From a phage, in the sequence record PZ452581.1: a stretch of DNA of 64,000 nt; one strand, written 5' to 3'. Position 1 is the stretch's first letter, and each line of letters opens with the position of its first letter. The position numbers and the translations under genes are program-made. Under the pieces are notes generated by a model. That model worked only from the letters and a program-made list of their open reading frames with translations, searched no databases and had not been told where the DNA came from. This document shows positions 18,043 through 57,200 of the stretch, in pieces.

Positions 18043-18071
18043 ATTATACCACGTTTATACGTGAAGCATTA
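18043..18071 (-). promoter_or_regulatory. MotA-dependent middle promoter upstream of uvsY (oriF-type origin promoter)
   Basis: Minus-strand TAATGCTTCA (MotA-box consensus), 13-nt spacer, then TATAAT; sits between the gene 25 stop and the uvsY start. Confidence 0.6.
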
Positions 18072-37049: not shown

Positions 37050-37384
37050 TTCATAATCACCAGATAAGCAGATTTAGCAGTTTCAACACGATAAATTTCG
37101 TGACGAAGTTTAGTTATACTTTTAATAACAGAACTAATTATATTCTGCCCATCTTTAAAGCGGTTTTTCTTATCAATAAAAATTGCACCAACCATCTTTT
37201 TGTGAAGCTCAACCGGATACTTCGTCACAATAATAGCATCATACACAGAAGGATGAATACTATTCACTAGAGTATCATTCATTAAAGTTATTCTAATGAA
37301 CTGTGCTGTTTCAGAGTCAAGCGCTCTATGATCACCAGTATCATTTTCAAGACAATTATCAATTATATCAGTTAAATTCATCAT
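37046..37384 (-). CDS. Hypothetical protein (cd.1-like)
   Basis: 112-aa ORF. Confidence 0.55.
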   Translation of the reverse strand: MMNLTDIIDNCLENDTGDHRALDSETAQFIRITLMNDTLVNSIHPSVYDAIIVTKYPVELHKKMVGAIFIDKKNRFKDGQNIISSVIKSITKLRHEIYRVETAKSAYLVIMK

Positions 37385-47193: not shown

Positions 47194-48054
47194 TTACACC
47201 GCCATCTTTCCTTTCAAGACACCATGGGACTGATAATCTTTGAGAACGAAATCTCGTGCTGTCATATATTCAGTTAACCAATACATTTGAGTTTCAGTAT
47301 CGCATTGACTGAATCCATTAGGCCAATTAATACTGAGTTTGCATAGATCCATAGGAGTTCTATTTAATATCTCTTTGCATTGCTCAATATGGTTAGAATA
47401 AATGTGTGTATTACCACCCGAGAATACCAAATCGCCCGGAACTAGTTCACACATGTCAGCAACAATATGCAAAAGAGCAGCATAACTCGCGATGTTAAAT
47501 GGAAGACCGAGGAAAACATCTACCGAACGTTGATACCATTGGAGGTCAAGGTATCCGTTACGCACATTAAACTGATAGAACATATGACAAGGAGGTAATG
47601 CCATCTGCTTGAGTTCAGCTGGATTCCATGCCGACACAATTTGACGCCTATCGTTGGGAAATGTTTTAATACGATTAACAACTTCTACAATTTGATCTAC
47701 ACCACCAAAATCACGCCACTGTTTTCCGTAAATTGGACCAAGTTCACCGCTATGATAACCTAAGTCTTTGGCCTGGTTTTCGTAGTTTTCATCCCAAATT
47801 GTTTTTCCTGCAATTAAAGATCCATGAGTACGTTGACGTAAATCATTTACGTTAGTACTTCCTGATAAGAACCACAATAACTCAGAAATACATGCATTCC
47901 AGGCGAGCTTCTTAGTCGTTACTGCAGGAAAACCTTTAGTTAAATCCCAGCGTAATTTAGTACCGAACAAAGCAATTGTTCCTGTGCCTGTTCGGTCATC
48001 AGTTTCATAGCCATTTTCAAAAATGTCTTTAATTAAATCTTGGTATTGTTTCAT
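47194..48054 (-). CDS. td: Thymidylate synthase (uninterrupted, no intron)
   Basis: 286-aa continuous ORF containing the catalytic PPCH motif. Confidence 0.95.
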   Translation of the reverse strand: MKQYQDLIKDIFENGYETDDRTGTGTIALFGTKLRWDLTKGFPAVTTKKLAWNACISELLWFLSGSTNVNDLRQRTHGSLIAGKTIWDENYENQAKDLGYHSGELGPIYGKQWRDFGGVDQIVEVVNRIKTFPNDRRQIVSAWNPAELKQMALPPCHMFYQFNVRNGYLDLQWYQRSVDVFLGLPFNIASYAALLHIVADMCELVPGDLVFSGGNTHIYSNHIEQCKEILNRTPMDLCKLSINWPNGFSQCDTETQMYWLTEYMTARDFVLKDYQSHGVLKGKMAV

Positions 48055-48098
48055 TTAGTACCTTATATAAATTATAATACATTTTATGAAGCTAATAA

Positions 48099-48446
48099 TC
48101 AATACGGTTTAGCATCAAATTTTCTTTCAATTTCAGGCGTAAAATACAATTCTTTACCACGCTTGGAAAAGCGACCAATAATATGATAATTATTCTCATC
48201 AAACGTGATATTGCCGATATCCATAGCTTTCAACCAAATATCGATATTTCTGTCAAGCTTTATATCAAAATTCCAATACGGAGAACTATTACCGAAAATA
48301 CTACAAGCGGATTCAGTGAAACAACTGCTATAAATCTTGTCTTTAGGAACTACTAATTGATAGACGCCTTTAATAAACTGAGGACCCTGCCATTTTGGTT
48401 GTTTCGCGTCTTTTTCTAATAGAATAGGGTAATAATTAAAATTCAT
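48099..48446 (-). CDS. Hypothetical protein in a frd-td insertion
   Basis: 115-aa ORF with ATG and GGCGGA ribosome-binding site, between the frd stop and td start. Confidence 0.55.
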   Translation of the reverse strand: MNFNYYPILLEKDAKQPKWQGPQFIKGVYQLVVPKDKIYSSCFTESACSIFGNSSPYWNFDIKLDRNIDIWLKAMDIGNITFDENNYHIIGRFSKRGKELYFTPEIERKFDAKPY

Positions 48447-48465
48447 ATTTTCCGCCAGCGTTATT

Positions 48466-49292
<827 letters not shown>

Positions 49293-49303
49293 ATTATCTC
49301 CTA

Positions 49304-49636
49304 TTAAAAAGGATCAGGAACATATCCGCTAGCTTTAATCATTTTAATTAACGTTAACATTCCTTTGTTAACTGCTCGTGAGATTTCATCAAAAACTTCA
49401 TCACTAAAAAGTTCTAACACGCCCTTCTGAACTTTTAATTTACAGCCAATAATTTCTTCATCGCCTATAGTAAATTCATTACCACCAATTCCACCGAAAA
49501 ACTTAATTACGCCAGTTAACTGTCTTCCACGAGAATATGGATCATGTGATAAAGTAATATGAGTCACCCCAGGTACAGTTTTAAATTGACAGCGAATGTT
49601 TACTTGAGCAATTCCAGTTACATGAATGTCAGACAT
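49304..49636 (-). CDS. Hypothetical protein (frd.2-like)
   Basis: 110-aa ORF. Confidence 0.55.
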   Translation of the reverse strand: MSDIHVTGIAQVNIRCQFKTVPGVTHITLSHDPYSRGRQLTGVIKFFGGIGGNEFTIGDEEIIGCKLKVQKGVLELFSDEVFDEISRAVNKGMLTLIKMIKASGYVPDPF

Positions 49637-49646
49637 AATATTTTCC

Positions 49647-49889
49647 TCAAACAGACTTTTTCACAGTTTTCCAATCAGCTTTAAACTGATCAACATCAGA
49701 ATGGTAAATCCAGAATCCTGCGCTTTCTCCATCTTCATAAAGAGGACATCCATCGCATTCATCTTCCCATCCCATATCACGCAAAAGACGTTCAGCTTTT
49801 TCAACAAGTTCAGAATCTTTACCGATGATATTAAAATACCATTTACCTCTAACTTCTGAATCTTTGATGCTTTGGCGTTGTAATCTCAT
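49647..49889 (-). CDS. Hypothetical protein (frd.3-like)
   Basis: 80-aa ORF downstream of an early promoter. Confidence 0.55.
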   Translation of the reverse strand: MRLQRQSIKDSEVRGKWYFNIIGKDSELVEKAERLLRDMGWEDECDGCPLYEDGESAGFWIYHSDVDQFKADWKTVKKSV

Positions 49890-54293: not shown

Positions 54294-57200
54294 ATGGCCG
54301 AGATTAAAAGAAAGTTCAGAGCAGAAGATGGTCTGGACGCAGGTGGTGATAAAATAATCAACGTAGCTTTAGCTGATCGTACCGTAGGAACTGACGGTGT
54401 TAACGTTGATTACCTAATTCAAGAAAACACAGTTCAACAATACGATCCAACTCGTGGATATTTAAAAGATTTTGTAATCATTTATGATAACCGCTTTTGG
54501 GCTGCTATAAATGATATTCCAAAACCGGCAGGAGCTTTTAATAGCGGGCGCTGGAGAGCATTACGTACTGATGCTAACTGGATTACAGTTTCATCTGGTT
54601 CATATCAATTAAAATCCGGTGAAGCTATTTCGGTTAACACTGCAGCTGGTAATGATATTACATTTACTTTACCATCTACTCCAATTGACGGTGATACTAT
54701 CGTTCTCCAAGACATTGGAGGAAAACCTGGAGTTAACCAAGTTTTAATTGTAGCTCCAGTACAAAGTATTGTAAACTTTAGAGGCGAACAAGTACGTTCA
54801 GTACTAATGACTCATCCAAAGTCACAGTTAGTTTTAATTTTTAGTAATCGTCTGTGGCAAATGTATGTAGCTGATTATAGTAGAGAAGCTGTAGTTGTAA
54901 CACCAGCGAATACTTATCAAGCGCAATCCAACGATTTTATCGTACGTAGATTTACTTCTGCTGCACCGATAAATATTAAACTTCCGAGATTTGCTAATCA
55001 TGGCGATATTATTAATTTCGTCGATTTGGATAAATTAAATCCGCTTTATCATACAATTGTTACAACATATGATGAAACCACTTCAGTACAAGAAGTTGGA
55101 ACTCATTCTATTGAAGGCCGTACATCTATTGACGGTTTCTTGATGTATGACGATAATGAGAAATTATGGAGATTATTTGACGGGGACAGTAAAGCACGTT
55201 TACGTATCATAACAACTAATTCAAACATTCGTCCAAATGAAGAAGTTATGGTATTTGGTGCGAATAATGGAACAACTCAAACAATTGAGCTTCAGCTTCC
55301 AACTAATATTTCTGTTGGTGATACTGTTAAAATTTCCATGAATTACATGAGAAAAGGACAAACAGTTAAAATCAAAGCTGCCGGTGAAGATAAAATTGCT
55401 TCTTCAGTTCAATTGCTGCAATTCCCAAAACGTTCAGAATATCCGCCTGAAACTAAATGGGTAACTGTTCAAGAATTAGTTTTTAACGGTGAAACTAATT
55501 ATGTTCCAGTTTTACAGCTTGCTTATATAGAAGATTCTGATGGAAAATACTGGGTTGTACAACAAAACGTTCCAACCGTAGAAAGAGTTGATTCTTTAAA
55601 TGATTCTACTAGAGCAAGATTAGGCGTAATTGCTTTAGCTACACAGGCTCAAGCTAACGTCGATTTAGAAAATTCTCCACAAAAAGAATTAGCAATTACT
55701 CCAGAAACATTAGCTAACCGTACTGCTACAGAAACTCGTAGAGGTATCGCAAGAATAGCAACTACTGCTCAAGTGAATCAGAACACCACATTCTCTTTTG
55801 CTGATGATATTATCATCACTCCTAAAAAGCTGAATGAAAGAACTGCTACAGAAACTCGCAGAGGTGTTGCAGAAATTGCTACTCAGCAAGAAACAAACGC
55901 AGGAACAGATGATACAACCATCATTACTCCTAAAAAGCTTCAAGCTCGTCAAGGTTCTGAATCATTATCTGGTATTGTAACTTTTGTATCTACTGCAGGT
56001 GCTACTCCAGCTTCTAGCCGTGAATTAAATGGTACGAATGTTTATAATAAAAACACTAATAATTTAGTTGTTTCGCCAAAAGCTTTGGATCAATATAAAG
56101 CTACTCCAACGCAACAAGGTGCAGTAATTTTAGCAGTTGAAAGTGAAGTAATTGCTGGACAAAGCCAAGAAGGATGGGCAAATGCGGTTGTAACGCCAGA
56201 AACGTTACATAAAAAGACATCAACTGATGCAAGAATTGGTTTAATTGAAATTGCTACGCAAAGTGAAGTTAATACAGGAACTGATTATACTCGTGCAGTC
56301 ACTCCTAAAACTTTAAATGACCGTAGAGCAACTGAAAGTTTAAGTGGTATAGCTGAAATTGCTACACAAGTTGAATTCGACGCAGGCGTCGACGATACTC
56401 GTATCTCTACACCATTAAAAATTAAAACCAGATTTAATAGTACTGATCGTACTTCTGTTGTTGCTCTATCTGGATTAGTTGAATCAGGAACTCTCTGGGA
56501 CCATTATACCCTTAATATTCTTGAAGCAAATGAGACGCAACGTGGTACACTTCGTGTAGCTACACAAGTTGAAGCTGCTGCAGGAACATTAGATAATGTT
56601 TTAATAACTCCTAAAAAGCTTTTAGGTACTAAATCTACCGAATCGCAAGAAGGTGTTATTAAAGTTGCAACTCAAGCTGAAACCGTAGCTGGAACATCAG
56701 CAAATACTGCTGTATCTCCAAAAAATTTAAAATGGATTGTGCAGAGTGAACCTACTTGGGCAGCTACTACTGCAATAAGAGGTTTTGTTAAAACTTCATC
56801 TGGTTCAATTACATTCGTTGGTAATGATACAGTCGGTTCTACCCAAGATTTAGAACTGTATGAGAAAAATAGCTATGCGGTATCACCATATGAATTAAAC
56901 CGTGTATTAGCAAATTATTTGCCATTAAAAGCAAAAGCTGCTGATACAAATTTATTGGATGGTCTAGATTCATCTCAGTTCATTCGTAGGGATATCGCAC
57001 AGACGGTTAATGGTTCACTAACCTTAACCCAACAAACGAATCTGAGTGCCCCTCTTGTATCATCTAGTACTGCTACGTTTGGTGGATCAGTTTCGGCAAA
57101 TAGTACATTAACTATTTCTAATACTGGAACGGCAACTCGTCTGATTTTTGAGAAAGGACCTCAAACTGGAACTAACCCAGCACAGACGATGACTATCAGA

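Follow-up and report, generated by a model that had tools for sequence, protein, structure and literature searches.

A small gene kept between frd and td in T-even phages, and the empty T4 junction as a probable derived state

In phage T4, the frd and td genes, which encode dihydrofolate reductase (DHFR) and thymidylate synthase, adjoin directly. In the phage genome of sequence record PZ452581.1, that of an ordinary Tequatrovirus sharing about 96% identity with phages like TH09, teqdroes and CrRp10, the two are separated by an open reading frame (ORF) of 115 amino acids (aa) on the minus strand (48446-48099), which we call family A and which is the subject of this report; coordinates refer to the analysed stretch of 64,000 nucleotides (the window) unless another record is named. 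Judged by its pattern of conservation, this ORF genuinely codes for a protein, one of a small family (PHROG 1928) that occurs only in T4-like phages, and it is very probably a long-standing resident of the frd-td slot. Going by the alleles found in sequenced records, T4 is the exception and not the reference state, an occupied slot being the condition of the Tequatrovirus majority. On balance, the explanation that best accommodates these data is that of an old slot resident, encoding an OB-like accessory product, that was lost in T4.

The layout of the junction can be read directly from the window. The upstream gene frd (48466-49047, minus strand; 193 aa) aligns with frd of T4, T2 and T6 and ends with the stop TGA at 48468-48466, its 3' end reading ...GTATATAAATGA. 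The ATG at 48469-48467, inside TATAAATGA, opens only the mini-frame ATG AAA TAA (48461-48469, minus strand), which overlaps the frd stop and stands at the position of the T4 td start (ATG AAA CAA); beyond the common ATGA the resemblance is weak, and it could have arisen by chance in AT-rich DNA. The ORF, which with its stop codon occupies 48099-48446, begins 19 bases past the frd stop and is preceded, at a distance of four bases, by the weak Shine-Dalgarno-like sequence GGCGGA (48451-48456, minus strand), in a translation-initiation region whose RNA is predicted to be unstructured, with less structure than shuffled controls (fold z = +1.66). A spacer of 44 nucleotides (48055-48098, minus strand), the same in the T6 alignment and one base longer in T2, contains a promoter-like site, considered below, and the td ribosome-binding site AAGG (48064-48061), and leads to an uninterrupted td (47194-48054, minus strand; 286 aa). 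Relative to T4, the extra sequence amounts to 415 bases, which is also the distance in nucleotides between the ATG at the frd stop and that of td, and its guanine-plus-cytosine (GC) content is 32.8%, as against 37.1% and 38.7% in the neighbouring genes. In T4 (NC_000866), frd lies at 145109-145690 and td ends at 145112, producing a four-base ATGA overlap, and alignment of the window with T4, T2 and T6 reveals a clean indel, the ORF being present in T2 and T6 and not in T4. The original prediction, made from the letters of the window alone, had described some 410 bp of extra DNA with a 115-aa ORF lacking any recognized motif, the two-codon frame at the frd end, the GGCGGA site, a td start at 48054 with its own AAGG, and the ATGA overlap of T4; each of these particulars was borne out.

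That the ORF is a gene can be seen from how it varies. Its predicted protein is 100% identical to those of T2 and T6, while the nucleotide sequence differs at 17 positions from T6 and at 15 from T2; all 32 of these 32 differences are synonymous, a pattern incompatible with a non-coding spacer. Residues 4-111 match positions 2-125 of the 126 in the PHROG 1928 profile (E = 8.4e-36), and a tblastn search with the protein found matches in 555 phage records, 363 of them at 90% protein identity or above; the ORF is conserved in relatives. The reading as an open frame that arose by chance in a non-coding spacer might have drawn on the weak ribosome-binding site and on the 2003 T2 record AY310907, where the ORF is unannotated; it is effectively excluded by the conservation pattern, as the family is kept to about 25% identity with invariant residues and a confident structure prediction, in addition to the synonymous substitutions already described. 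Because this PHROG 1928 gene is already catalogued, as a "hypothetical protein" in T6 (YP_010067382) and most genomes, it is not new as an object and is ordinary for T4-like genomes. Full-text literature searches turned up no paper that mentions an ORF in the frd-td interval of T2 or T6, most subscription-journal papers being out of reach.

Within Tequatrovirus, a probe of the T4 junction recovered three spacings between the flanking genes: direct contact, an addition of about 416 bp carrying the 115-aa ORF, and an addition of about 206 bp. The last of these (fFiEco06, SHFML-26, JS98 and others) encodes an unrelated basic protein of 68 aa, PHROG 9550 (hereafter gene B), found in about 135 records at 90% identity or above; the idea that it might be a truncated 115-aa ORF was rejected, the two being unrelated in sequence. 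The direct junction, counted with a 100-nt probe across the T4 junction at an E-value cut-off that excludes half-matches, occurs in only 35 records, of which about half are T4 isolates, RB55 or RB59, and in 31 of the 35 the 100 bp around the junction share 99% identity or more with T4. The three alleles together (363 + 135 + 35 = 533) come near the 515-537 records that match the flanks. T4 itself contains no family A homologue, at this position or elsewhere, in a six-frame family-profile search of the whole genome (best E = 0.55). The empty junction is both rare and nearly clonal and would therefore reflect a recent deletion, the pattern fitting one event, and on this evidence the junction of T4 is probably the derived state. 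Three direct-junction records (OP172784, OP172786 and PQ349265) are 91% identical to T4 at the junction, the other 32 being 97-100% identical, and may have lost the slot genes independently.

Outside Tequatrovirus, the same slot is occupied by recognizable relatives. A family A homologue with 31-46% identity immediately follows frd in Enterobacter phage ZX14 (Kanagawavirus), Klebsiella phage ValerieMcCarty04 (Jiaodavirus), Klebsiella phage F48 (Marfavirus) and Citrobacter phage CF1 (Moonvirus), and homologues hold this position as well in a number of metagenomic or other T4-like phages (our L010, L011, L012, L014, L019 and L020). An exhaustive HMMER search over 1.84 billion representative proteins returned just 22 related clusters, 20 of them genuine members of 95-116 aa; the longer matches P0021 and P0023, repetitive and not phage-like in appearance, were judged spurious. 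When a profile of 31 sequences was used in another large search, 20 clusters of phage proteins came back, and the related clusters of both searches were all small, unnamed and devoid of Pfam domains. Where genomic context was examined, for six representatives (P0002, P0003, P0013, P0017, P0019 and P0024), the member lay between the DHFR and thymidylate synthase genes in five and elsewhere in one (L013). Moreover, a second gene follows family A in ZX14, F48, CF1, L011/L012, L014, L019 and L020, and in L010 the copies number three; the additional genes match the family profile (E = 1e-6 to 1e-20) as well as PHROG 1928 and are therefore tandem paralogues, here termed A2. The window has no second copy. 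Across these phages, identity to the window proteins is 31-46% for family A, 46-58% for Frd and 59-80% for Td, a divergence on a similar scale that fits long co-residence with the neighbouring genes. The closest relatives outside Tequatrovirus belong to two metagenomic phages, with 63% and 66% identity in the A protein. One of these, L019, has the gene order frd-A-A2-B-td; all of its junctions overlap, those of frd/A, A2/B and B/td as ATGA. Its A and Frd are 63% and 49% identical to those of the window phage, and its B shares 81% identity with the Tequatrovirus 68-aa ORF. F48 likewise combines A and A2 with a short homologue of B, and in every lineage outside Tequatrovirus the junctions overlap by 1-20 nt.

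We propose that the frd-td slot of the nucleotide-precursor operon is an old home of family A, often in the form of two or three tandem paralogues (A, A2) and sometimes closed by the unrelated small gene B. The Tequatrovirus lineage would have trimmed an old A-A2-B array in different ways, keeping A alone in the window phage, T2 and T6 and B alone in others, and T4 with a few close relatives would have lost the whole array, most simply via recombination between ATGA stop/start overlaps. In terms of L019, recombination of the first with the second ATGA overlap would give the fFiEco06 junction (TATAAATGAGCAAT), and that of the first with the third would give the T4 junction (TATAAATGAAACAA) and hence the textbook T4 overlap of frd and td. 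The original prediction had spoken of an accessory gene inserted at a conserved junction. Its accessory character holds, in that the gene is dispensable and absent from T4 and the junction is otherwise conserved; "insertion" probably has the direction of change wrong, with the same slot occupied in at least four other genera and the empty allele confined to 35 records.

The product would be a stand-alone, mildly basic and mostly beta protein of 13.6 kDa (isoelectric point 8.5), acting as a dispensable accessory factor. Family alignments show Q16, W19, G27, G91, K95 and G97 to be invariant and L9, Y29, F93 and F102 nearly so (plus N79 in the narrower A3 alignment), with the conserved motifs LLExDxKQxKW, HG[IV]Y, GNIxFD and IIGRFxKxG..F.P. 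A first AlphaFold2 model, from a four-sequence alignment, was discarded at a predicted local distance difference test (pLDDT) score of 61; with a 23-sequence alignment the score rose to 92 (predicted template modelling score 0.84), the model having strands at residues 6-12, 27-34, 38-40, 48-50, 62-64, 80-82, 86-96 and 99-104 and a helix at 68-76. The resulting order b1-b2-b3-helix-b4-b5 is compatible, as regards the succession of elements, with an OB fold, and the weak structural matches of the model are mostly to OB-fold nucleic-acid binders. Taken together, element order and weak structural neighbours point, on balance, to an OB-like small beta-barrel. Likeness to known OB domains (S1, RPA/SSB, telomere-end-binding) extends to the size of a single stand-alone domain and to the placing of conserved aromatic and basic residues, which are found in strands b2 and b4, in the loop that joins b1 to b2 and in the turn that joins b4 to b5; family A differs from them in its extra short strands (38-40 and 80-82), in a long loop at 13-26 and in the lack of a sequence-profile match to any OB family. 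In the model, conserved residues would fall at the OB ligand site: the b1-b2 loop has Q16 and W19, b2 has G27 and Y29, b4 has G91, F93 and K95, and the b4-b5 turn has G97. From these positions we infer binding of a nucleic acid (ssDNA, single-stranded DNA, or RNA) or of another ligand, and nucleic-acid binding as such is put forward only tentatively.

Database searches bear out the description of the ORF as free of recognizable motifs. Pfam, NCBIfam and PADLOC returned no meaningful match for the protein or its paralogue, Pfam none for any of the 23 family members, and a PDB profile sequence search with the family alignment gave chance-level matches only. There was no similarity to known anti-phage defence proteins in PADLOC, nor to a known anti-defence inhibitor in PDB sequence and fold searches. 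The AlphaFold2 model had no significant match to a solved structure, solved OB domains included, and a BFVD fold search found only uncharacterised T4-like phage proteins. The remote-homology search and structure prediction suggested in the original prediction thus led to PHROG 1928 and a confident model (pLDDT 92) with no significant solved relative.

Several results weigh against the picture of an old resident with an OB-like product. The L013 member (1248-1577 of metagenomic contig ERZ27260015 k141_230232) lies directly upstream of an RlaP-family (PF10127) gene, on a contig that is itself T4-like and also encodes RegB. No domain fusion or named relative of family A emerged from either large protein search, and no OB, S1 or SSB sequence profile matched the protein or the 23-member alignment in Pfam, NCBIfam or PDB sequences. 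In Tequatrovirus alone, the flanks of A do not overlap, there being a gap of 19-20 nt upstream and the 44-nt spacer downstream, and these flanks together with the lower GC content (32.8% vs 37-39%) would also fit re-acquisition by recombination. A related and rather unlikely alternative would have the ORF inserted, within Tequatrovirus, from another T4-like phage by recombination into an ancestral T4-type overlapping junction. Besides the GC content and the non-overlapping flanks, which come with their own Shine-Dalgarno-like site and promoter-like spacer, it could draw on the 9-bp repeat TAAATGAAA that flanks the 415-bp indel on both sides, and on the closer relationship to L019 of A (63%) and B (81%) than of Frd (49%), which hints at lateral exchange of slot genes. 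The repeat, however, is mostly forced, because frd ends in AAATGA and td begins with ATGAAA, and it would serve a deletion equally well; the spacers copy no other region of the window or T4, and no mobility gene is present. It is the occupation of the same slot by family A across many genera, against an empty allele that is rare and nearly clonal, that favours loss in T4 over insertion.

With respect to function, a small OB-like accessory protein that binds nucleic acid or another ligand and is made with the nucleotide-precursor enzymes is possible, and its dispensability follows from the fact that T4 lacks the gene. A comparable degree of doubt attaches to the alternative of a factor for counter-defence or host takeover, which would bind a host protein and block it, in place of a nucleic-acid binder tied to replication or nucleotide supply. 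Polymorphism, variable copy number, dispensability, early expression and phage restriction are typical traits of host-acting phage accessory genes. Correspondingly, the slot is polymorphic within one genus (A, B or empty), tandem copy number ranges from one to three, T4 does without family A, the family is restricted to phages, and the gene, on the strand of frd and td with no intervening terminator, is presumably made with those early genes. Family A nonetheless has not evolved markedly faster than Frd (31-46% vs 46-58% identity), its position between two metabolic genes is kept across genera, which would be unusual for arms-race cargo, it resembles no known anti-defence protein testable by PDB sequence and fold searches, and the checked papers on T-even accessory genes make no mention of it. 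Less probable again is an accessory subunit, regulator or folate/nucleotide binder that works directly with Frd and/or Td in deoxynucleoside triphosphate (dNTP) synthesis. Such a role could account for the strikingly constant position between DHFR and thymidylate synthase in divergent phages, for the translational coupling that the stop/start overlaps imply, and for conserved aromatic, basic and amide residues that could line a small-molecule pocket; it sits poorly with the functional Frd and Td that T4 makes without family A, with the unrelated 68-aa ORF that takes its place in some Tequatroviruses, with the L013 member away from frd and td, and with the lack of similarity to folate- or nucleotide-binding families. 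We would give slightly less credence still to PHROG 1928 being a small beta-barrel fold not recognised before, or an OB fold that has diverged very far, with a role tied to the Frd-Td step of thymidylate synthesis. If so, the protein could, for example, regulate the dNTP-synthesis complex or serve it as an adaptor, or it could shield thymidylate/folate metabolism from host defence; this would explain the kept place between frd and td across genera as well as the tandem duplication, and the role would have been missed only because T4 deleted family A. A mobile-element origin, as part or remnant of a homing endonuclease or a promoter-stem-loop shuffling cassette, is very improbable. T-even genomes hold many free-standing endonucleases near nucleotide-metabolism genes, and a Klebsiella phage homologue (OR271596) is labelled "putative homing endonuclease", yet neither the ORF protein nor the 23 members have a GIY-YIG, HNH, LAGLIDADG or other Pfam match, the predicted fold is a small beta-barrel, and there are neither stem-loops in the flanks nor, in the window or T4, repeated cassette ends.

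Promoter-stem-loop cassettes of the T4 type reportedly have their insert bracketed by repeated early-promoter and stem-loop modules, and the cassette was rejected here for want of a stable hairpin in the flanks, of a terminator-like site and of any repetition of the flanks in the window or T4. Some annotations of family A were likewise set aside: the homing-endonuclease label of OR271596 is unsupported by any catalytic domain match in Pfam, "putative dihydrofolate reductase" (e.g., PV287714, OM386666 and MW749000) by any DHFR_1 or other Pfam match, and "putative glucose-1-phosphate adenylyltransferase" (PQ571308 and OR125554) by any profile search.

A terminator scan found no terminator-like site in the insert or its flanks, fold predictions gave no stable hairpin in either flank, and sigma-70 and terminator counts were not above shuffled expectation. 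With no terminator between frd, the ORF and td, all on one strand, the ORF is presumably made together with frd and td, before DNA replication. In the spacer before td, a relaxed pattern for T4 middle promoters (MotA box and -10) fits the sequence aGCTTCA-N10-TATAAT or N12-TAATTT (48092-48069), with the candidate -10 element at 48076-48069; the candidate MotA box has A where the consensus TGCTTyA has T, the consensus spacing to TAnnnT being 11-13 bp. The relaxed pattern GCTTYA-N10-13-TAnnnT occurs 22 times in the window, as against 9.5 +/- 3.0 expected, and none of 100 shuffles reached 22. Other such sites include 18043-18067, 37137-37161 and 56503-56527, all on the minus strand, and several sites in the window, with a perfect TATAAT at their end, are candidates for genuine MotA-dependent promoters. 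Compared by blast with the window and T4, the two spacers gave only chance words and no repeated copies, and the sole Rfam match, a sub-threshold Drosophila long non-coding RNA model, was taken as chance.

The alternative slot gene B (PHROG 9550) merits a short description of its own. It encodes 68-69 aa, is very basic and is found at 748-954 of fFiEco06 (L008), 3170-3379 of L019 and 2726-2854 of L006, with the motif GERSLGFTRKAKQM.KLGYKP. Like family A it occupies the frd-td slot (fFiEco06, JS98) and lacks an assigned function, and the two co-occur in L019 and F48; it differs in being shorter and very basic, in having no sequence similarity to family A and in occurring in unrelated Phapecoctavirus phages. 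Its roughly 135 records are of Tequatrovirus and Dhakavirus, and the approximately 43% identity of the Phapecoctavirus versions suggests lateral movement. The td gene of the window, as that of T2, has no group I intron or I-TevI; T4, T6, G28 and fFiEco06 have the intron. A link between slot allele and td intron was rejected, as T6 has the ORF with the intron, the window and T2 have the ORF without it, and the intron also accompanies the empty slot (T4 and G28) and the 68-aa ORF (fFiEco06). On the other side of frd, between frd.1 (49647-49889) and frd, the window has two further ORFs on the minus strand (49047-49292 and 49304-49636), one of 81 aa (PHROG 3183) and the other of 110 aa (Pfam DUF7247, PHROG 3566). 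T6 has both, T2 has room for one, and T4 has neither (gap 71 bp), so T4 has been trimmed on this side of frd too.

In the gene 32-frd-td-nrdA region of T4, family A has counterparts in the small ORFs frd.1/DUF5417, frd.2, frd.3, nrdA.1/DUF4326 and nrdA.2/DUF5496, which share its operon, size class, lack of an assigned function and variable presence among T4-like phages. They are unrelated to it in sequence, and family A, unlike them, is missing from T4 and was therefore never covered by T4 genetics. PHROG 1928, of which the window ORF is a member with no distinguishing difference, is itself devoid of an assigned function, Pfam entry or structure. These results would correct a T4-centred assumption, in that the ATGA overlap of frd and td appears to be a rare and probably recently derived state; the usual T-even arrangement is one accessory gene in the slot, and related genera have two to four. 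They also draw attention to a conserved family with a confident predicted structure and no significant solved relative, carried by T2, T6 and most of the natural Tequatroviruses employed in phage therapy and in screens of defence systems. Early T-even biology would gain a further component if the protein were found to bind Frd/Td, nucleic acid or a factor of host defence.
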